Positions 22,780 to 38,160 are shown, counted from the first letter of the stretch. The stretch: DNA of 64,000 nt from Catajapyx aquilonaris (GCA_000934665.2 KZ538179.1:1-64000); one strand, 5' to 3'. The notes: generated by a model from the letters alone, not told the origin. Translations and numbers: made by a program.

Positions 22780-26479
<3,700 letters not shown>

Positions 26480-26649
26480 AATCCTGGCCATCACAACCAC
26501 TGCAACCACAAGACCACCCATTAGTGAGATTCGAATGCGGCACACGGGCTAGGCCCCACACACACCCAGGGGCAAGGGAGAGGGGCCGAGAGGGGCACTC
26601 ACCTCAGCAGATCATCCAACCCCCTTTTCTGCCAAGCCGAGATCTTGTT

Positions 26650-26820: not shown

Positions 26821-27276
26821 GCCGCATCCTCCCCCCCCCCTTTGGAAAAAAATTGATTCCGCTCTCTGTGTCTCAGCAGCCGGAGGACATCCCCCCCCCG
26901 TGCACCGCATGAATGGCAACGGGATACAGCCTGTAATTATTATGACGAAATTGGAGAGGGTCATTTCGTATGCCCTTGACATTGCAAGCATAATGGTAGA
27001 GGGGCGGGCCGCGGTCATTAAATGCGGATGTGGGTCGCGAGCAGAGGACATTTTTGATCGTTTCCAGATCATTCCATGCCGGGCGTCGTCTGCTGCCCGT
27101 CTGACCTACATTTTAAAACGCCAAGTGTGCCACAATTTTTGAGCATCAATGTTGCCTAAATATGCAGGTTCTCACTAGTAGACGTGCTGTTTTCATAATT
27201 AGGTTCGTGTCCGCTTGTCCATCTGTCAACTCGTTTGCATGCAGGAATGCCAGGAAAAGGCACTTCCGGTTTGGCA

Positions 27277-27285
27277 ATGGCGACG
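27277..27285 (+). CDS. METTL6: Putative 9-nt first coding segment (Met-Ala-Thr) of the METTL6/snoRNA host transcript
   Basis: CACTTCCGGT (ETS-like) precedes ATGGCGACG|GTGAGT. Phase 0, in frame with the acceptor at 31481. Confidence 0.55.
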
Positions 27286-27671
27286 GTGAGTTGATGGCGG
27301 GTGGTGGTGAGTCTCTTTGCTGGTCGTTCCATGGCCCCTTTTGCTGCATGGAATGTCCGGCGGTTGGGTCAGTGGATAGGCCCAAATGTTGTGCAGACAT
27401 GGAGTGTGTCAGGTTGGGTTAATTGCAGCAGATTGTGCCCCGATGTGGTTAGATTTCGATGGCCATGGGCCGGTGTGGGCCTTTCCCTTTGTCTAAAGTC
27501 ACGGCAGGCCATGCCGATCACATAATCAGTGCAGCTTGTGGTTGCTCATGTGAAGCGCAATGAGTGTTGCATGCGAGGGGATGGGCGTTGCAGCACACAC
27601 TTTCCTCTAGTAATGTGTGCATTGTTGAAGTTGTAACTTACAGTTAGAGCCTGACCTATACGTTCAGGGAG

Positions 27672-27813
27672 AGTCGTGTTGTAGACCAAGTGCTGGCAAG
27701 CATGTAAAGGGCCAGCCCAATTACAAGGATTTACAGAGAACTTTGTGGTGCCTGGGTGCGTACCAAGCTATGTTTGGGGATTTATGTGGGATGAATTTCA
27801 TTGAGACACATTT
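27672..27813 (+). ncRNA. Candidate box H/ACA snoRNA
   Basis: Hairpin (TTGTA/TACAA, GCTGGC/GCCAGC), H box AGAGAA at 27735-27740, second hairpin, then ACA-TTT at 27808-27813. About 142 nt. Confidence 0.5.
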
Positions 27814-27962
27814 CCAGCTGTTCTCTTGCATTCACTCACATTTTAGCCAGAGTGTTGCATGCTCATAGGATATTCATTGAGAATTTGCATTTCTAATGGG
27901 CTGTAAAAGTTTGATTACAATCCCTATTAATAAAGGAGAAAGTTTGTACATATAATTGTATG

Positions 27963-28181
27963 TAAGGTGAAGTGGGGTAAGTGCATACACGGGGTAAGTG
28001 CATACACGAGCCAAGTGCATACACGAGCCGCCATATTGGAATGAAAATGGCTGACAACACCAAAACGCATCAGGGACTCTTCGTGTAGATGCACATAACA
28101 TCCCCGGACGCGTTTTGGTGTCGTCAGCCATTTTCATTCCAATATGGCGGCCCATTTATGCACTTACCCCACTTCACCTTA
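27963..28181. mobile_element. Palindromic MITE
   Basis: TAAGGTGAAGTGGGGTAAGTGCATA / TATGCACTTACCCCACTTCACCTTA, with inner inverted arms GCCGCCATATTGGAATGAAAATGGCTGAC. Confidence 0.8.
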
Positions 28182-29493
28182 TAATATTTTTATGTATGTC
28201 ACGCCTAATTAAGCCACTTCCCGGGCACGGAGAGCGCTCAAATTTTGCACAGCCATGTCTTACATATCGGTGACTCCGGGAAAAGTCCCAAAACCGCACT
28301 TTTTTGAGTCTAAGGGGGGGTTTTTAGCAGATTAAGCAATTGCCTAGCAACCCTCGCTGTCAACAAGCCCAAAAGAAGGATCTGCCTCTCTCACTCATGT
28401 TCTAAAATGAAATCAACATTGCATATTCAACAATGAAAACAATAGAACAACGGGCAGGTTGACAAGAATAATATAATTGCAGTACACGTAGGGTATTGTA
28501 ACAATGAACGGTTGGAGTACTTCGGGGAGTGCCGAGATCAACAATACCGAACAATACAGTACTGTACAGTACATATCCATAGAACCTGCCACAAGGCACC
28601 AGGAAACACAGAGGAAAGAGTAGCAGGTATACGTTCGTGTGTTTGGTCTCGAGAAGTGTTGAAGTGATGCCGTCATGTTCAGATTGTGTCATCATCTAAT
28701 ATTTCAAGAAATTCCAATAGGCCTACAAAATTTTCAAATGTAATTTTAAAACCGGGGATAATGTGAAATGGCGTAAAATGGAGCGGCGTAAAACGGTTTC
28801 TTCCCATATGGGAAATCTTTCTTGGCCGTTTCACAACCAGTACGCTATCATAATTTTCAATTGATCATTGTGATTTTGTTTATGGATCATGATTTCCGTG
28901 TTCTGGATATGTGATAGGAGACATGGCAAAGCATACAATGAACATGGTAATAATATTATTTCTCCCTGGGTCGTAAATAAAAAGCGTAAAATCAGACATT
29001 CGCATTTCCTGGTGTTCTGAAATAGGTCCCCTGGTTTTGATAATGGCCTACTGGACTTATTGCAGTATGATTTACTGTGATCTGTACTTACGAATGGGCT
29101 CCCAAGGCTAAGGATACAGGTAGTACCCGTTGTGTTATCATCATATTTTTCACAATTTTTCAATTTAAAATTTTTATTACATCATTTTCACACCGGTGTT
29201 AACGTAAAACGGCGTAAAATGGAGGGTGTAAAACGGGTACCTTACTGTATTTGATAATTGGACGGTGTTATGCAATAATGCATCAACCCACATGAGAACA
29301 GTTTTGAGAAAAGGGGCTTTGAAGGTCATACCTGTGAAATTATCTACGTATATGTAAGGCAAAAAATTGCCCATGGCAACAGAATTTTGTTGGTGATTAC
29401 CGTAGAATCAGGCCTATAAATGGTTTCATCTTTGGCACTTCCCCCAATTTTTTTATCCAATTTTTTTTATTCCCCCTCCCCTCAATGTATCTC

Positions 29494-29633
29494 CACCTTG
29501 CCGTGGTGGTGGGCTTTCGTTTTCCCATGATCCTGAAGAGCTATGCCGGCGGTAGTTTCATCTACTGACTACTGGTAGGGCCGCCCAAGTCGGACAGGTC
29601 TTTGGGACAGGAGACAGGCTAAGAGAGATACCA
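29494..29633 (+). mobile_element. Fragment resembling the 5' UTR of an RTE-clade LINE
   Basis: CACCTTGCCGTGGTGGTGGGCTT...ATGATCCTGAAGAGCTATGCCG...GGTAGGGCCGCCCAAGTCGGACAGGTC...AGACAGGCTAA follows the conserved RTE 5' motif as I recall it. Confidence 0.55.
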
Positions 29634-30318
29634 GTCTTTCCTCTCTTCTTTTTCCTCTTCGTTTCTCTCTCCATCTGTCCCACCTTTTTGTATTCTGATA
29701 ACCACATAGCCATAGTTGTGTGGCTCTTTATTACGCAAACAAACCAGAATTTTTACACCCTTCCAGTGCCTACATATGCAAGGGAATGAGCAGTTTTGCA
29801 TTTAATATTGCTTGAGATCGAAGAAGATTTCGGTGTAATTATCCACGCTCTTTTTTTCCCTGCGCGAAGAACGGGTGCCTCTGCTAGTTTAATATAAATT
29901 GTGCATAAAAATTAGTGAAATTATAATTATGAATTCTCTGTTGTATAAAGGTGTGTTGCCAAGTTTGTGAGAGTCCGTCGTATTAAAAGCAAGAGTGAGA
30001 AACCAATTTTCAAACCCTACATGTCTGTTGACTTGTACGCTTAAAAGCCTCGGATACGCTTTTAAAAAAAAACTGAACAACTTGGGTGCACACCTTAATG
30101 ACAAGTTATTAGCGGCTATGTTGGATGAACACGTTTTTGCAGTAGGACTTGTGGCCTACATGGGCATTGCAGCAAGTAGGGAAATTGAATTTATATTGCA
30201 TCCTGTGTTGCATATTGTGGGCATGCAAGATTAACGTAAAGTCCAAAAAACTATGATTTGAGATAATACTATGCAGGGATGTGACCTTACACTTTTTCTG
30301 TGCTAGTGAATTCATAAA

Positions 30319-30451
30319 ATCCTGGCTGCTGGCTGGTTGATTATTAAATGAATGAGTAGGGCCAAATAGAGGATAGAGCAGAACGAATGGGACATAGTGG
30401 AATTGTCAAAATTCTAAACTGACAAAACGGGATTTTGTGTCTTTCACTTGT
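30319..30451 (+). ncRNA. Candidate box H/ACA snoRNA (non-canonical ACT tail)
   Basis: ATCCT/AGGAT stem, H box AGAGCA at 30375-30380, second hairpin GACATAG..TTGTCA/TGACAA..TTGTGTC. GGCTGCTGGC is antisense to the conserved 18S GCCAGCAGCC. Confidence 0.4.
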
Positions 30452-31481
30452 ATGCTCAAGATATTTGAGAGAACAGGGTAAATTGACCAATTAGAACATT
30501 CATAGCCATGTCTGTATGTGTTTGCCTGACTCAGTTTCTTCTGGTTGAAGCACTTGACAAAATTTCAATAATTGAGGTGAGTGAGAAATGACCACAGCCA
30601 ATCTTGCTTCTATGCAGCCGGATCAGTTCACAGGACAATAATAATAAACCTGATGGCCTCCTTTCTAAGCTCAGTAAAACTGGTACAAATCAACCATTTT
30701 GTGCCAAGTTGGCATCCAGCTGTTGCAGTGGCCAATAGATACCCATTGAGGACTTTCTCAAGAAGTAGGAAGGGGGAGAGAATAGTAGAGCAGTGGATTG
30801 ACCATTGCCACCACTAAGATTTTATTTGTTGAATGCGGAAATTCCCTTCTATCACTAAGCAGGATAATTTTTGTCATAATGTAACCCTGGCATTCCTTCT
30901 TTGAAAGAAACCTAAGTCTGTGTGTGACACACTCACATGTAGTGTGGTTTCTCCCCGTCCCCCACACTGTTATTCTATTTCTATTTCTAAGGTGTGGCTT
31001 TTGCATGGTTGTTTTGTGTATGCCATTGCTGCTGTGCAGTGTTTTAAAAAAATTAATTTGGTGTGAAACTTCCCATGTAGTAATTAATTGGTAACAGGGA
31101 ATGTGCCAATGACAGCTGAAATGAGGTGGTCTTGAGGGAAAAGAGTTTGACAAGCATTGACATTGACTGTGGACAACAAATTGGTCTAGTATGGTTCTCA
31201 TGCACGTTTGTAACTGTTAGGCATGAAAACAGGATTAATCTACGTCCTTGTTTGTTAAGAAATCATGTTTGTCATATGAATGGTAATAATGCTGAACTGA
31301 TGCAAGAATTTTAATGCAAAATGCAGTGTTGTGGAGTATTTAAATATAAAAATAGCCAAATGTGTCTGATGATGTGACATTTTGATATTACCCTACAGAA
31401 CAGAAGCTTATACAACTGTACATGATATTTATTGTTAGATCTAAGTTTAATTCTGTATTATATTCATTAATCTTGTTGCAG

Positions 31482-32324
31482 ATGAAGGACTGTGCAGTAA
31501 CTGGCAAGATGAAACCTGAAGACAGTAGGGGTGAAGAGTCAAGGGGAGGCTGTGCAGCCGAACTCACCACTGAGCAGCAGGCTCACCTACTGCATCAAGA
31601 CTCCCGCTTGGTTCCCGCATTCAAGGCTCAAAAGTTGGAGGCAGAGGCTCAACGTAACTGGGACCTCTTTTATAAGCGCAATGAGACCCGCTTCTTTAAG
31701 GACCGCCATTGGACTACAAGAGAGTTCCAGGAGCTTGTGGAAAGTGACCCAGGAAGAAAGATATTGTTGGAGATTGGATGTGGGGTTGGAAACTTTGTAT
31801 TCCCATTATTGGAAGAAGGGCTGAACCTACGAGTCTATGCATGTGACTTTTCACCTAGAGCAGTTGAGTTCGTGCGCAGCCATCCTTTATATAATGAGAC
31901 TATGATCAAAGCTTTCCAGTGTGACTTGACCAAAGATGAGTTACAGCTGGAAGGGAACCTGGCTTGTATTGCGAGTCTAATATTTGTATTGTCGTCCATT
32001 CATCCGACTAAGTTCAGTGATTGCTTGAAAAAGATATGGGACTCTGTTAAACCGGGTGGGATGGTCATCTTTAGAGATTATGGCCGCTATGACATGGCTC
32101 AGTTGAGATTTGGACCAGGGAGCAAAATAAGTGACAATTTCTATGCTCGCCAAGATGGAACGAGAGTGTACTACTTGACCACGGAAGAGGTTGATAGATT
32201 GTTCACTGATGCAGGATTTGTCACCCATGCTTTGAGTTACGTGCATAGAAGGACTCTGAACTTGAAGGAAGGGGTTGATGTCCCTAGAATTTTTGTGCAA
32301 GGAAAGTTTCTCAAGCCATCCTAA
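31482..32324 (+). CDS. METTL6: tRNA N3-methylcytidine methyltransferase METTL6 (single large coding exon)
   Basis: NWDLFYKRNETRFFKDRHWTTREF, LLEIGCGVGN, YACDFSPRAV, FRDYGRYDMAQLRF, FYARQDGTR, VPRIFVQGKF. The acceptor TTGTTGCAG lies immediately before ATG 31482. Confidence 0.96.
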   Translation: MKDCAVTGKMKPEDSRGEESRGGCAAELTTEQQAHLLHQDSRLVPAFKAQKLEAEAQRNWDLFYKRNETRFFKDRHWTTREFQELVESDPGRKILLEIGCGVGNFVFPLLEEGLNLRVYACDFSPRAVEFVRSHPLYNETMIKAFQCDLTKDELQLEGNLACIASLIFVLSSIHPTKFSDCLKKIWDSVKPGGMVIFRDYGRYDMAQLRFGPGSKISDNFYARQDGTRVYYLTTEEVDRLFTDAGFVTHALSYVHRRTLNLKEGVDVPRIFVQGKFLKPS

Positions 32325-32343
32325 TTCATGTAAGTAACTTAAG

Positions 32344-32514
32344 TGTTGACTTTCAAGAGTCAGATTGTTGTCCTTTATGCCCTCGTTATGTCCTTTTCGG
32401 TTTGTCTCCAATATTAAGAATAATTATTTTAAATTTAATCAGTATCTAAATCAGCAAATGTGTGTGGGCTTACAAAGTAATTGAATTTATGAGTGCTAAC
32501 ATGATTATACAGCA
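32344..32514 (+). ncRNA. Candidate box H/ACA snoRNA
   Basis: Hairpin, H box AGAATA at 32417-32422, hairpin, ACA at 32509-32511. Begins just inside the donor at 32330. Confidence 0.35.
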
Positions 32515-32558
32515 CAGCAAGGCAGCATACTCAAGAATATAGTAATTAAGGTTGGACC

Positions 32559-32707
32559 TACAGTGTGGAAAACCAAACCGCGATCTGACGTCATCAAGGT
32601 TGCCATGGAAATACCCTCTCACAACAGTATGAGTAAACAATGTCAACAAAAAAGGAACAATGTAAGAAACAATGATGTCAGATCGCCATTTCGTTTTCCA
32701 CACTGTA
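32559..32707. mobile_element. Tc1-like MITE
   Basis: TACAGTGTGGAAAAC...GCGATCTGACGTCAT / ATGATGTCAGATCGC...GTTTTCCACACTGTA. Confidence 0.75.
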
Positions 32708-32780
32708 AGTGTCCGTAACTATTTTATAATGGCTTTCTTAAGCTGAGTGACTCTGCTCATGTTTCTGCACTGAATCAGCA

Positions 32781-32858
32781 TTCAATGATGACTTTCTTTG
32801 CTACTCTTGACAGTTTGGGTGACGACACTCCTACCACCAATATAATAAAACTGAGAAT
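32781..32858 (+). ncRNA. SNORD76: Box C/D snoRNA, U76/SNORD76-like, copy 1
   Basis: C ATGATGA 32785, guide TTTGCTACT-C, D' TTGA 32807, C' GTGACGA, TACCACCAA, D CTGA 32851; terminal stem ATCAGCA/TGCTGAT. Antisense to 28S UUGGUGGUAGUAGCAAA. Confidence 0.88.
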
Positions 32859-33590
32859 TGCTGATTTCAGACAAAAAGGATTGTGTGCATATTAGTCCCA
32901 GCACAGAGGAAACTGGATCTGTCCTGATACTGGCTCACTATTTTGTTGTTAAGGACAGCCTTGCCAATCTAGATAGTTGAATGACTTCAGGTCAGCATGG
33001 ATGAATTCTGTCGGTGTGAAACAATGTAAAATGACAGCACCAACAGCATTCTTCAATGCTGACCTGAAGTCAATCAGCATTCGACTGATATCTGTAATGG
33101 GCAAAGAGTGGGGGCCAGTTCTGGAATGGTTCCATACTCTAAATAGTGCTTTGTAATTGAACCCAATGAGGCATAATTTCTGTTTTCATGTCTGTATTTA
33201 TTTTTCTAGGTAAGTGCAAGTTAGCCTGCAAGGGTTGTGGTCAAATACAAAGGTTAGTTTACTGGTTTCTACTTAAATTTGCATAGAGCCTGTCACACAT
33301 GCAAACACTTGTAATGGCAACAAGAAAAAAAGGAATAGTGATCCATCATCTTTGAATGAAAAGGAGAAATAACAATATTGTGAAAAAGGGCAAACCTAGT
33401 AGGAAGAGTGGAACGTGCTTTTTAGCCATGAGTTGCAGTAACCCTGAAATTAGTAGGTTTGTTGTCCTTACCCATACCCTTATAAATTAAAAGAATATCC
33501 CTTAAAAGGCAACAGGTTCATTATGAGGTTTATTGTTGTCCTTGCAATGTGTTTCTTGTGAAATAATCTTTGCCTAGGGTGCAATATCAG

Positions 33591-33667
33591 CTGACATGAT
33601 GTCTGAATTTTTATTATACCAAAAGTGGCACTGAATTTAGTGATTGAAATGTATTATACCTGATCAT
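33591..33667 (+). ncRNA. Box C/D snoRNA with 28S guide TACCAAAAGTGGC, copy 1
   Basis: C ATGATGT 33596, guide 33617-33629, D' CTGA 33631, C' GTGATTG, D CTGA 33660; flanking stem ATCAGC/GCTGAT. Confidence 0.8.
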
Positions 33668-33848
33668 GGCTGATGTGCACCCAGTGATCTGATGTTTCAC
33701 ATGGGGAAGTGACAAGTAATACAATAACCATTTTTCAAATTTGCAGATGGAGCAAACTGAAACGATGCAACTAAGGAAACTTCTGTAAGCCATGTAGGTT
33801 CCTTCATTTTAATTTGAAAGATATACTGTAAATCCATTGTGCAGGAAA

Positions 33849-33928
33849 TATCCGTGATGTCATTCTTTGCTATTCTTGACTGCTTGGTTGATGAGTTCTC
33901 AATTACCACCAATATTTAGACTGAGAAT
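33849..33928 (+). ncRNA. SNORD76: Box C/D snoRNA, U76/SNORD76-like, copy 2
   Basis: C GTGATGT 33854, guide TTTGCTATT (would form a G-U pair), D' TTGA 33876, C' TTGATGA, D CTGA 33921; stem CAGGAAAT/ATTTCCTG. Confidence 0.82.
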
Positions 33929-34110
33929 TTCCTGAAAGTGATCAATTTTGGGTGTAAAACTTCAATATTACATTGTGTGTTGTATGCTTCAGGGTTCATC
34001 GTGTGCAATCTCTGCTGACGGCTTTCATTAGGTGAGTCTAGTGGACTTTCAAATGTTATGAAATGCTAAAATCATATGGTGATATGATGTTCAGACATAA
34101 CAAATATCAG

Positions 34111-34189
34111 CTGACATGATGTCTAAATTTTTATTATACCAAAAGTGGCACTGAATTTACAGTGATTGAAAAGTATTATATCTGACCAT
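34111..34189 (+). ncRNA. Box C/D snoRNA with 28S guide TACCAAAAGTGGC, copy 2
   Basis: C ATGATGT 34116, guide 34137-34149, D' CTGA 34151, C' GTGATTG, D CTGA 34182. Confidence 0.8.
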
Positions 34190-34372
34190 GGCTGATTTGC
34201 ATCCAGTAACCTGATACTTCACATGGGGGAAGTGACAAATAGTACAATAACAGTTTTTCATATTTGCAGATGGAGCAGAACTGAAATGATGCAACTAAGG
34301 AAACTTCTGTAAGCCATGTAGGTTCCTTCATTTTAATTTGAAAGAAATACTGTAAATCCATTGTACAGGAAA

Positions 34373-34450
34373 TATCCGTGATGACATTCTTTGCTACTCT
34401 TGACTGCTTGGTTGATGAGAATAATTACCACCAATATTTAGACTGAGAAT
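34373..34450 (+). ncRNA. SNORD76: Box C/D snoRNA, U76/SNORD76-like, copy 3
   Basis: C GTGATGA 34378, guide TTTGCTACT-C, D' TTGA 34400, C' TTGATGA, D CTGA 34443; stem CAGGAAAT/ATTTCCTG. Confidence 0.88.
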
Positions 34451-34629
34451 TTCCTGAAAATTTTAGTGATCAATTGTGGGCTTAAAACTTAAATATTACA
34501 TTGTGTGTTTTATGCTTCAGGGTTCATCGCAATCTCTGGGTGCAATCACCCGGTGTGCAATCTCTGCTGACAGCTTTCATTAGGTGAGTCTAGTGCACTT
34601 TCAAATGTTATTAAATGCTAAAATCATAC

Positions 34630-34701
34630 GGTGACATGATGTTCAGACATTACCAAAAGTGGCACTGAATTACAGTGAGGATCTTATAAAACCTGATCAC
34701 C
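34630..34701 (+). ncRNA. Box C/D snoRNA with 28S guide TTACCAAAAGTGGC, copy 3
   Basis: Perfect stem GGTGA/TCACC, C ATGATGT 34636, 14-nt guide 34650-34663, D' CTGA 34665, C' GTGAGGA, D CTGA 34693. Confidence 0.85.
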
Positions 34702-35457
34702 AAATTAAATTAGTCATTTGTTGAGGTAGTGGTTAAATACTGGGTATTAAACTGTTTTTACGTACACAGGAAATGAAGTGAGGTACGATGCAAATGGCAG
34801 GAACTTCACATTTGAATACTTGATGTCGTTACCATTTGCTGACACGCTATGAATGAGTGCTGAAGCAGTTTGAAGAGTGAAATACATATTCCTGCTGTGA
34901 ACTTCTTGGCTGGATGCAAACTATGCAATGCCCCTTCTACTTGGGGCCAAAAAGGAGAAGGAACTCAATTTCAAGCAATACTGGAACTTGACTGTGTAAC
35001 AGCTATGAATGGCTACACCTACATCCTGTCCCCACAACATTTTGACCTGATGTTGCTGGATTCCTTAATTGTCACAAGTTCAACTGCACAAACGAATGGT
35101 ATGAGATCGTTTACTGGAGTGATATCAATTTGAAGGTGCAATACTAGTGATTGACTGGATGACAGAACATTCAGAATATAACTATGAATAGTTTGAAGAT
35201 TTTCTGTCATTCTTTTCAGTCGTGTGTGTTAATTTGTACCTAAAATGTAAATTGTCAAGCTTGCAATCAGACTTGTGCTATCTGTAACACCAAAGCCTTC
35301 TTGTAAGTTGCATTTTGCAGAAATTTGGGTGATGACAAATCCCTGTCCCCTGCCTTTGTCAATGAAAATCTAGGTATGAGGTGGATGAAGACTACTTTTG
35401 CCATCTCATGCCAGGAAAACTACACCTGCAATGTGCAGTAAGCTCTAGTGTTTCTTG

Positions 35458-35627
35458 TACAGTGTTGGACATTAATCGAGGCATACTGCTAGCGACATCT
35501 TCCGAAGCGGCAGAAGAAGGAATCTTGCTCGCCTGGCTTGCTTGCACTATCCTTATCTTCGATTCCTTCTTCTGTCGCTTCGGAAAATGTCGCTAGCAGT
35601 ATGCCTCGATTAATGTCCAACACTGTA
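35458..35627. mobile_element. Palindromic Tc1-like MITE (TA-CAGTG...CACTG-TA)
   Basis: Arms are nearly identical to those of the copy at 25416-25574. Confidence 0.88.
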
Positions 35628-35857
35628 CACCTCAGACTATTACTAGAGGCCACCAGAGTGTGAAGCAAGAAGAATAAAACCTTAGCCTTACTGCACAATG
35701 TTGATGCAGTTTTTGTGTAGGACACTGTACTTATGTGATGTCAATTTTTCTATGTTGCTACATTTCAAGAACTTGGAGAGCAAAGTAGGAGACAATGATC
35801 AGGGTAAAAGCTCGTTTAATATTGCTTATGATGCAGTTTTTATACAATATTGTGTAC

Positions 35858-35936
35858 GGAGCAATGTGATGAACTTCTAGTTGGTTTGATTAACCATGAT
35901 TTTGCATGTAATGCATTAGCTCTGGCTGATTGCTCC
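35858..35936 (+). ncRNA. SNORD44: Box C/D snoRNA, U44/SNORD44-like (18S Am166-equivalent guide)
   Basis: Stem GGAGCAA/TTGCTCC, C GTGATGA 35866, D' TTGA, C' ATGATT, guide ATTAGCTCT-GG before D CTGA 35926. Antisense to 18S UAGAGCUAAU; GCATGTA upstream also matches 18S UACAUGC. Confidence 0.82.
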
Positions 35937-36077
35937 AAAATTTTAACAAAACTGCAACAGTTACTTGCTACAAAACTTCTACTGACATTTTGTTCCCCGT
36001 CTTTCACAGACTGATTGTGTTCACATGTGTGTGGAGATGGGCATCCAGTCTCAGGCCCAAGTTGGAGGTATGCCATC

Positions 36078-36151
36078 ACATTGATGCCGGAGAAAATGTT
36101 ATGACAGATTAATACTGAAAATTTGTGATTCAGCATGTATTAGCTGATTTC
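36078..36151 (+). ncRNA. Box C/D snoRNA with U45-like guide (18S Um172-equivalent); boundaries uncertain
   Basis: GCATGTATTAG (36133-36143) lies immediately before CTGA 36144 and is antisense to 18S CUAAUACAUGC. Weak C TTGATGC 36081, CTGA 36115, GTGATT 36125. Confidence 0.55.
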
Positions 36152-36606
36152 CTCCACATTTTCGTTCGTTGACAGTCACAGTTCCTTACTATAACTAAGT
36201 GACTAGCGAATTTTATCTTTACTGTCCTGCCATTGCTCCTGTGCATTGACAAATCACTGGAAGAGCAAGTGACACTCAAACTGTAGTCTGAAGTTAAATC
36301 ATTAAACTTGTACAAAAATTTGGCTGTTGATTAATGACATGGTTTCGCATGGTTTGGTGCAATGTTAACTGTTTGAATTTTGTCTACAATTTGTGCTAAA
36401 GTAATCTTTGTAGAAAATAAACCAGATCTGAAAATGAAATCTGCCAAACTGGCATCATTGAAGTTCTATTCATTCACATCAAATGCATAATTTTTTCTGA
36501 ATCACAAAATAATGACCTTGACTTATCCACATCCACCAAGGTTTACACAGGTACAAAAACAATGAGATTCTCAACAAATCGAACTTGGTCAATTTTGCGT
36601 GTGACC

Positions 36607-37870
36607 TTACCTGGGCTTGGTCCATTTGCGGCATTGCATAACACTCACAAACGTACTTCGTATTTCAGCACTGCACAAGCAATACACATAGAAGTTAGCT
36701 GCAAAGCTGAGAAGCTCCAAGTCATTAGAGGTGGCCCGGAATATCTGGAATCCCAAGTCGTCCTCCATGTTTTCAGTGTATAAGATTGACAGAAATGCGG
36801 CTGGGGTTGTGCATGATATGAAAAGTGCTATGATCCCCAGCATTATCCTCAAGAGTCGTCTCTCTTCTGGACTCTGCTTCCAACGTGATGGCCTTCTCGA
36901 TGACGTTGACGAGTGTGTTGAACTAGCACGTGAGGCAAGTCCTGCCAAGGACGTCATTGGTATTGAAGCACTGACTGTGTGGACTGGGGATTTTTGGGGC
37001 TGAGGCAGTCCAGGCACAGAGCAATCAGAGGAGGAGGCAGAATCCTGTGGGGCTGAGGGTGGGGTGGCGCAACCTTCCCTTAGGCGCCGTCGTCGCTCAG
37101 TGACACTTCGGAAGTGGGAGAGGATGAGTGCATTGAGAACAATGAGACTGACTAAAGGCAAAAATCGCATGAGGGACTCGCTGACCCACAGGTACGCCTT
37201 CCACCACTGCTGTTCAGTCACCTGCTCGTTGTCCATCACACCCCACATTTGCCACGTATCTGTGCCATTGCTATAAGAGAAGGGATTTGTATTAGCTTAG
37301 TGAGTATCTCTGCTCAGCAATATCCACTGAGTTACCCACAATTCAAGCTTGGTAATGTCTCCTTTCAATTTATTGTTTTACTTACCTGATGCTTACAACT
37401 TTCCTGTACCAGCAGAGGGGTGTGTTGAGGACCACCCCTGCTAAAAATGCAGCTGCTATGTATCTGTGTGCACTGGCTAAGTTGTGCCTGTGTGGAAACC
37501 GTGTAGGCCTGGCCACAGAGAGGTATCTCTCAACAGTCATCTCAATAATCAGGAAGACAGACGTGGCAGAGAAGCAGTTGATAAGTGGCAGCTCCAAATG
37601 GGCTCGAAAAAAGGCTCCAGCGTAGCTTCTCTCCGAATAGATATCAAGAACGTCCATGAGCAAGGCAATGGAGTGGAGCAGGGCCAGGAGGTTTGCAACA
37701 GCAAGGGCCAAAAGATACCGATACATGACTCCACCACGCAGGTGGGGCCTTGTCAGCACCACCAGGTTCAGCGTGTTTCCCACCAAACCACTGCCCATAA
37801 TTACTGGAGCAACCACCCCATAAGCTATCCATTTCACATGCTTTATGGCCTCATCATGTGGTGTTGACAT
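36607..37870 (-). CDS. Class A (rhodopsin-like) GPCR, FMRFamide/sex-peptide-receptor-like orphan; exons 37386-37870, 36607-37270
   Basis: Seven hydrophobic segments: GLVGNTLNLVVLTR, YLLALAVANL, MTVERYLSV, RFLPLVSLIVLN, FISCTTP, ANFYVYCL. The stop overlaps an AG|GTAAGG, so a further exon cannot be excluded. Confidence 0.88.
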
Positions 37871-38088
37871 GGTAGACTGGAGGCACTTGGTGGTCAGACT
37901 ACATCCTGTAAATAGTGAAGAAAATGGTCATTGTTTTTTACTCTCGTTGTCAATGGCACTGTTGCACAAAAATCAGTACCGGCTGGGTACTGACAGGAAC
38001 AATGTTCTGCAATATATAATGGGAGTTCCTTTGTAGCGAATTTTGCAATATAAAAAAATAAGCATTGTGGGATTAAAAAACAAAAATC

Positions 38089-38160
38089 CTCCCCGGCGGG
38101 GAATCGAACCCCGGTCTCCCGCGTGACAGGCGGGGATACTAACCACTATACTACCGAGGA
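38089..38160 (-). tRNA. trnD-GTC: tRNA-Asp (GTC)
   Basis: TCCTCGGTAGTATAGTGGTTAGTATCCCCGCCTGTCACGCGGGAGACCGGGGTTCGATTCCCCGCCGGGGAG forms a full cloverleaf and is followed by a TTTTT Pol III terminator. Confidence 0.97.

Follow-up and report, generated by a model that had tools for sequence, protein, structure and literature searches.

A candidate Uhg/GAS5-type box C/D snoRNA cluster downstream of METTL6 in Catajapyx aquilonaris that may share the METTL6 transcript

A group of box C/D small nucleolar RNA (snoRNA)-like elements follows the METTL6 gene in a 64,000-nucleotide stretch of Catajapyx aquilonaris DNA (GCA_000934665.2 KZ538179.1:1-64000; hereafter the window). We identified eight such elements, A to H, all on the plus strand at 32.78-36.16 kb, downstream of METTL6. 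The region is well supported in silico as a real, non-random box C/D snoRNA cluster of the Uhg/GAS5 type, and seven of the eight elements look sound. The snoRNAs themselves are ordinary. We put at roughly 0.5 the probability that METTL6 is their host and that the cluster lies in its multi-intron 3' untranslated region (3'UTR); it is plausible that the METTL6 exon and the snoRNA cluster lie on one RNA molecule. A first-pass annotation of this DNA had proposed a single hidden unit of this kind, and its claims are taken up below with the results that bear on them.

Elements were recognized by a C box (RUGAUGA) near the 5' end and a D box (CUGA) near the 3' end, 60-100 nucleotides (nt) apart. The CUGA D box is present in all eight elements and a RUGAUGA-type C box in seven, H having GUUAUGA instead. 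Scanning both strands of the window for C box, D box and stem in combination returned 14 matches, half of which (7/14) fell into one 4-kb plus-strand bin at 32-36 kb. Three elements are U76/U24-like: A (32780-32859; C box AUGAUGA at 32785, D box at 32851), C (33849-33929; C box GUGAUGU at 33854, D box at 33921, 8-base-pair (bp) stem) and E (34373-34451; C box GUGAUGA at 34378, D box at 34443), a recent duplicate of C. A second family comprises B (33590-33672; C box AUGAUGU at 33596, D' box at 33631, D box at 33660), which carries a 13-nt guide to the large subunit ribosomal RNA (LSU rRNA) segment GCCACUUUUGGUA, its recent duplicate D (34106-34196; C box at 34116, D' at 34151, D at 34182) and the diverged paralogue F (34631-34701; C box at 34636, D' at 34665, D at 34693), whose 14-nt guide addresses the same LSU segment. 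G (35859-35936; C box GUGAUGA at 35866, D box at 35926) is U44-like. H (36089-36156; C box at 36098, D' at 36115, D at 36144) is doubtful, its C box differing from the consensus by one change at what we take to be a critical position.

The eight candidates named in the first-pass annotation were thus all recovered, seven canonical and H degenerate, and its statement that most have clear terminal stems agrees with our finding of a stem in every one. Stems of 5-17 bp appear in the folds of seven elements, and that of D (ATCAGC/GCTGAT) was read directly from the sequence; the longest flanks A at 32770-32870 (17 pairs). Fold z-scores, from -1.8 to +1.0, do not stand out, which is the usual picture for C/D snoRNAs. 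Below the Rfam gathering thresholds, six of the eight elements match C/D families, with B and D missed: SNORD24 three times (26-32 bits; A 29.9, C 26.3 and E 32.1), snoZ102_R77 for G (34.3 bits), SNORD36 for F (22 bits) and SNORD82 for H (19 bits). The SNORD36 and SNORD82 matches were judged spurious, with E-values of 8.5 and guides that aim at other sites. SNORD24 (RF00069) for A, C and E and snoZ102_R77 (RF00359) for G are the best covariance models, and their conserved guide stretches align; nevertheless, at 26-34 bits against gathering scores of 41 and 40, these elements are not members by the Rfam criterion.

Complementarity to rRNA was examined in public contigs of eukaryotes other than this organism. 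Four of the 182 fetched loci were checked with Rfam: two are complete eukaryotic LSU (L017 and L056), one covers small subunit (SSU) model positions 70-1831 (L152) and one contains 5.8S and partial LSU (L004). The LSU panel was collected with a pattern of two A/C/E guide words, which retrieved more than 103 metagenome loci with the common context GATCTTGGTGGTAGTAGCAAATATTC. For the SSU panel, a 19-mer from an 18S-like locus retrieved at least 46 contigs in 'bacterial' assemblies; in a scan of viral contigs for 18S, 31 of 33 matches were chance-like, and the other two were 18S-like but truncated.

The first-pass annotation had placed rRNA-antisense guides next to D or D' boxes, and we observed such guides in every element. 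B and D form 13 bp with LSU GCCACTTTTGGTA(A), and F forms 14 bp with the same segment, each duplex ending 1 nt before a CUGA D' box. The D guide of C and E forms 13 bp with LSU CTAAATATTGGTG and likewise ends 1 nt before the D box. In G, the guide AUUAGCUCUGG pairs with SSU CUAGAGCUAAU (duplex segment CTAGAGCTAAT) over 11 bp, including one G-U, directly before the D box; in H, the guide GCAUGUAUUAG pairs with SSU CUAAUACAUGC (duplex segment CTAATACATGC) over 11 bp in the same position. Duplexes of B to H are thus 11-14 bp long and end 0-1 nt from CUGA. A, C and E additionally share a D' guide, UUUGCUACU, followed by C and then UUGA, which pairs over 9 bp with LSU AGTAGCAAA; that this UUGA is the D' box is our own reading. 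The same three elements carry UACCACCAA, which pairs with the adjacent LSU TTGGTGGTA.

Such box-adjacent matches are concentrated in the cluster. An 11-mer abutting the box is antisense to a word found in at least three rRNA loci at 6 of 38 CTGA sites of the cluster, compared with 5 of 537 elsewhere in the window (Fisher p = 2e-5); with 12-mers the counts are 4/38 and 0/537. Plain k-mer antisense counts that ignored box adjacency had a background too high to be useful.

The nucleotide to be methylated is set by the fifth-nucleotide rule, counted upstream of the D or D' box (PMC4696412). Sites were mapped by fitting the nucleotide spacings of methylated positions listed in supplement 1 of PMC11014333, which gives equivalent rRNA positions in fly, human, yeast, Arabidopsis, Xenopus and Dictyostelium, to the fetched rRNA context. 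The 28S spacing 2338/2350/2351/2352 fits GATCTTGGTGGTAGTAGC only if the A/C/E D' guide addresses the SNORD76 site. Opposite the fifth nucleotide of this guide is the adenosine in LSU GGUAGUA*GC (human A2350, Drosophila Am1691), which is therefore the predicted target; in the fly, Am1691 is guided by Me28S-A1666a and U76:54Eb, both in Uhg1 (PMC11014333). Similarly, the 18S spacing 159/166/172/174 fits GGTAATTCTAGAGCTAATACATGC only if G addresses the SNORD44 site and H the SNORD45A/B site. The guide of G falls on the SSU adenosine of CUAGA*GC (human A166), the U44-type target, a match that is partly circular. At the level of targets, the U76 label given earlier to A, C and E and the U44 label given to G therefore hold, by site spacings on the rRNA context.

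For B, D and F the predicted target is LSU GCCA*CUUUUGG. The SNORD32/51 site (human A1511) was considered as a candidate, and the site spacings in supplement 1 together with the distances between LSU motifs ruled it out. The nearest listed site is that of SNORD38 (yeast A1133), which motif distances and inference place about 13 nt downstream. Therefore, the B/D/F site is without an established counterpart. The same is true of the site of the C/E D guide, which possibly lies in LSU domain I.

In 18S rRNA, the nucleotides that G and H would methylate correspond to human A166 and, within SSU CUAAU*AC, U172, respectively. For Drosophila, methylation at the SNORD44- or SNORD45-equivalent 18S site is absent from supplement 1 of PMC11014333, and this lineage may keep 18S guides that flies have lost. 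Whatever the host, the predicted guides to these two sites bear on change in rRNA methylation within arthropods.

Between consecutive snoRNAs, splice motifs predict a series of small exons of 43, 38, 39, 39, 63, 13, 83, 34 and 58 nt that leads to a terminal exon carrying AATAAA, and the eight snoRNAs fall into eight different predicted introns. The first mini-exon (33210-33252) has the acceptor tttttctag and the donor AAG|GTTAGT and is without support from snoRNA spacing. It is followed by mini-exons at 33747-33784, 33993-34031, 34270-34308 and 34521-34583, by one of 13 nt at 34770-34782 with a weak donor (GTACGA) and an uncertain 3' end, and by others at 35220-35302 (alternative donor 35438), 35770-35803 (acceptor caag, donor GTAAAA) and 36010-36067. 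The terminal exon (36176-36440) has an uncertain 5' boundary and is closed by AATAAA at 36416-36421. All of these lie on the plus strand. The first-pass annotation had counted at least six tiny non-coding exons and a final AATAAA; nine mini-exons of 13-83 nt are predicted here, and the AATAAA is in place. At 33.2-36.1 kb, acceptor-donor patterns of mini-exon type reach about five times their density in the window as a whole (6 of 26 plus-strand patterns), which by itself is a modest enrichment.

From the D box to the next acceptor we measured 83 nt for B, 68 for C, 84 for D, 74 for E, 73 for F and 80 for G, and thereby reproduced all six distances of the first-pass annotation. Under a mechanical acceptor rule the count is smaller: five of the eight D boxes lie 68-84 nt before an acceptor, compared with 30 of 536 control CTGA sites in the rest of the window. 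E drops out because of an extra AG at +20; its homologous acceptor at 34521 gives 74 nt and would raise the count to six of eight. The D box of A is 118 nt from an acceptor by the mechanical rule, outside this range. The probability that at least four of six independent elements fall within range by chance is 1.3e-4. A spacing of about 70 nt between snoRNA and 3' splice site is the rule of Hirose and Steitz 2001, as cited in PMC1821038.

Upstream of the cluster, the METTL6 open reading frame (ORF) runs from 31482 to 32321 on the plus strand, with the stop TAA at 32322-32324, and the coding sequence (CDS) is complete within one 848-nt exon (31482-32329). The exon opens with the acceptor ttgttgcag|ATG at 31482 and closes with the donor CAT|GTAAGT, which starts at 32330. 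Residues 14-279 of the ORF align with residues 3-273 of the human METTL6 chain 8owx_A (E = 1e-89), a Pfam search returned methyltransferase domains, and the closest of 4166 database relatives are METTL6 proteins of insects, decapods, Daphnia and ticks at 56-64% identity, with none closer. The uninterrupted METTL6 coding exon and the GTAAGT 5 nt beyond its stop, both named in the first-pass annotation, are accordingly borne out. A retrocopied METTL6, which it also suggested, found no backing: we looked at the exon flanks for a poly(A) remnant or other hallmark of retrocopying and found none.

Farther upstream, BiP (HSP70 family, 744 bits, C-terminal KDEL) occupies the minus strand at 22780-26548. 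Head-to-head with it, as had been described, lies the end of a candidate first exon, ATGGCGACG|GTGAGT, on the plus strand (27277-27291, with the exon predicted from the splice motif to end at 27285/27286). This motif falls inside the island shared with BiP, where the observed/expected (o/e) CpG ratio is 0.65-0.96 over 25.5-27.6 kb; it is the sole CpG-rich island upstream. Across METTL6 and the cluster (30.3-36.6 kb), CpG o/e is 0.12-0.52, and a second island is absent. GC skew keeps mostly to positive values between 27.0 and about 36.4 kb, dipping slightly at 32.4-33.0 kb. GTAAGT occurs 26 times on the plus strand of the 64 kb, one of these being the donor after the METTL6 stop. A lies upstream of all mini-exons and is therefore intronic only if there is an exon upstream of it. 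The first AATAAA or ATTAAA after the METTL6 stop is at 32844, 520 nt on, inside A. The donor after the stop, the interval free of poly(A) signals, the single CpG island, the GC skew and the place of A are indirect, sequence-based arguments for one shared unit.

We propose the following model, whose steps are drawn from established snoRNA biology. RNA polymerase II would initiate near 27.0-27.3 kb, within the island shared with BiP, and would transcribe the entire string. The METTL6 coding exon would be spliced through the donor after its stop, and the mini-exons would form a long multi-intron 3'UTR ending near 36.44 kb. Each intron would be freed by splicing; debranching and exonucleolytic trimming down to the C/D core, held by the terminal stem, would then yield small nucleolar ribonucleoproteins (snoRNPs) with RNAs of 70-90 nt. 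These would guide 2'-O-methylation, in each duplex at the rRNA nucleotide opposite guide position five counted upstream from the D or D' box, with the LSU SNORD76 site (A, C and E), the SSU SNORD44 site (G), the SSU SNORD45 site (H) and LSU GCCA*CUUUUGG (B, D and F) as targets. The sequence anatomy and the complementarity to rRNA are shown by sequence comparison; from them we infer that the introns are spliced, that the snoRNAs accumulate and direct methylation, and that METTL6 is physically joined to the cluster. Nonsense-mediated decay in flies depends little on exon junctions, so that introns in a 3'UTR need not destroy an arthropod mRNA. In human cells, 3'UTR introns are the best predictor of nonsense-mediated decay (PMC5238794).

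A snoRNA cluster in 3'UTR introns of a coding gene is an arrangement already known. In Drosophila mfl/Nop60B, four DmSnR60 and two snm60 copies lie one per intron in alternative 3'UTRs, about 70 nt upstream of 3' splice sites, and this cluster was first attributed to a non-coding host, dUhg6 (PMC1821038). The novelty claimed in the first-pass annotation was consequently too high. As in mfl/Nop60B, a coding gene here has a predicted extended 3'UTR cut by introns, each with one copy of a tandem-duplicated C/D snoRNA about 70 nt before the 3' splice site, and a predicted downstream poly(A) site, and the cluster can readily be taken for a non-coding host of its own. Unlike mfl/Nop60B, which encodes a pseudouridine synthase, the proposed host METTL6 is a tRNA m3C methyltransferase, the snoRNA families are others and the whole CDS is one exon. 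Moreover, the shared transcript was established for mfl by Northern blots and cDNAs (PMC1821038), whereas here it is deduced from sequence.

Two other systems offer partial parallels. Like Drosophila Uhg1 and Uhg4, the cluster predicts multi-copy C/D snoRNAs in introns of a host with short exons, and Me28S-A1666a and U76:54Eb of Uhg1 are directed at the LSU adenosine that is also the predicted target of A, C and E; unlike the proposed METTL6 unit, these hosts are without a coding exon (PMC11014333). Vertebrate GAS5 hosts both SNORD76 and SNORD44 in introns, two families in common with this cluster, but is non-coding, and SNORD45 is not among its intronic snoRNAs listed in PMC4159348. Having two families in common could be chance, by a rough estimate at several per cent. 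We found no report of METTL6 as a snoRNA host in the literature searched, judged by titles and the starts of abstracts, and CG34195 and Mettl6 are absent from supplement 1 of PMC11014333.

Several observations weigh against METTL6 as the host of a functional cluster. None of the eight elements is found at the Rfam gathering threshold (top score 34.3 bits against 40), so the Rfam comparison proposed in the first-pass annotation came out in favor of the snoRNAs only below it. H combines its degenerate C box with a D box just 28 nt before the next acceptor, and the A/C/E D' duplex is just 9 bp. Pairing was judged on rRNA other than the organism's own. The C/E D-guide match occurs in one of the two reference LSUs (L056) and its 11-mer in 4 of 103 LSU loci. 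Because the SSU and LSU panels were fished with the G/H and A/C/E motifs, those guide matches are partly circular, and only B/D/F and the C/E D guide are independent. Every mini-exon is a prediction from splice motifs, and downstream of A the first strong acceptor is 355 nt away. The CpG-depleted sequence extends about 1 kb beyond the predicted poly(A) site and is therefore no marker of the limits of the unit. Furthermore, another GTAAGT, at 32705, could be the first donor of a separate host, and Drosophila U76-type guides sit in a non-coding host (PMC11014333).

The last two points belong to the strongest competing explanation, which we regard as a serious though somewhat less probable one: a separate non-coding host of the Uhg/GAS5 type, whose promoter and first exon would be located after the METTL6 stop but before about 33.2 kb, with METTL6 ending independently. 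The 32705 donor is strong and would leave A intronic, and the AATAAA at 32844 could end an unspliced METTL6 mRNA. A YYCTTTYY (TCT-like) word, presumably a TCT promoter motif, lies about 60 nt past the METTL6 stop, and the location of U76-type snoRNAs in Uhg1 sets a precedent in Drosophila (PMC11014333). Nevertheless, 30.3-36.6 kb contains no CpG- or GC-rich patch, the 32705 donor sits in an arm of an inverted repeat resembling a miniature inverted-repeat transposable element (MITE), and a separate host would give no reason for the consensus donor right after the METTL6 stop. In Drosophila, the DmSnR60 cluster was itself assigned to such a host (dUhg6) and later shown to be part of the coding gene mfl (PMC1821038).

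More speculatively, and with little probability in our estimate, the METTL6 exon could be a cassette in an ancient GAS5-like host whose U76-U44 linkage is older than the split of arthropods and vertebrates. Such a host would have captured an intronless METTL6 copy, which uses its strong housekeeping promoter; skipping or inclusion of the exon would switch between a snoRNA carrier and a methyltransferase mRNA, thereby coupling tRNA and rRNA methylation.

Decay of the elements would offer another explanation, namely that some or all of them are degenerating pseudogene copies or chance look-alikes. All score below the Rfam gathering thresholds and H has a degenerate C box. In addition, 33560-34075 and 34076-34615 stem from a very recent tandem duplication and are similar over their full length, so that the conservation between B and D and between C and E is uninformative about constraint. 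The older paralogues speak otherwise. F compared with B/D, and A compared with C/E, have nothing in common beyond the C box, one guide, D', C' and D, and their flanks are unalignable; A is conserved with C and E only in boxes and guide, and the terminal stems of F and A differ in sequence from those of their paralogues with pairing kept. Since diverged A and F retain boxes, guide and stem pairing amid diverged flanks, and perfect 13-14-nt guides adjoin the boxes, we consider general decay or chance resemblance improbable.

The least probable alternative, that the snoRNAs are real but have their own promoters or are processed independently of splicing, with the mini-exons being chance motifs, could draw on the unusually long 17-bp external stem of A, as long external stems support splicing-independent assembly, but is opposed by the 68-84-nt spacing to strong acceptors with a consensus donor 13-83 nt farther on (5/8 against 30/536 controls) and by the roughly fivefold density of mini-exon patterns at 33.2-36.1 kb (6/26).

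If METTL6 and the cluster do share a transcript, this would be a second clear animal case of a coding gene with a whole snoRNA cluster in its 3'UTR introns. An RNA-modification enzyme as host would fit the bias of snoRNA hosts toward translation-related genes (PMC11014333). For annotators, the case would be a warning that clusters of this sort may be overlooked or mistakenly annotated as separate non-coding RNAs.

Within the cluster, a remnant resembling the 5' half of F lies just upstream of D (34078-34100, plus strand) and points to unequal crossing-over. At the start of the predicted 43-nt mini-exon, an acceptor directly abuts a donor (tttttctag|GTAAGT; 33201-33215, plus strand), a juxtaposition that we take to be the recursive splice site motif of flies. 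A strongly structured 130-nt element occupies a predicted intron at 35308-35440 (plus strand; minimum free energy -44.4 kcal/mol, z -3.46). Its outer stem is 13 bp long and its inner hairpin a perfect 12 bp, and it also contains the word GUGAUGA and, close to the 3' end, an ACA; it was rejected as a C/D or H/ACA snoRNA, being without a D box, a pseudouridylation pocket or an Rfam match. Near-perfect MITE-like inverted repeats lie in predicted introns at 28016-28162, 32560-32712, 32983-33071 and 35455-35635, and in Rfam they give sub-threshold look-alikes of plant and animal microRNAs (for example MIR831, 54.8 bits against a gathering score of 100).

Beyond the cluster, a convergent two-exon gene for a rhodopsin-family receptor lies on the minus strand at 36610-37927, its end about 170 nt from the cluster AATAAA, and just beyond it is a tRNA-Asp(GTC) gene (38089-38160, minus strand). 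CpG depletion is mosaic across the window, blocks with o/e of 0.12-0.5 alternating with blocks of about 1.0, and GC- and CpG-rich islands lie at about 2 kb, about 11 kb and 25.5-27.6 kb; this pattern suggests germline gene-body DNA methylation in this genome. Finally, the SSU panel includes at least 46 contigs filed under bacterial genomes or metagenome-assembled genomes (loci L137-L182, with titles including Streptomyces, Nocardia and Rhodococcus) that carry a eukaryotic 18S motif. One of them, L152, was confirmed as eukaryotic SSU rRNA at 1508.8 bits, and these contigs are probably eukaryotic contamination of the assemblies.

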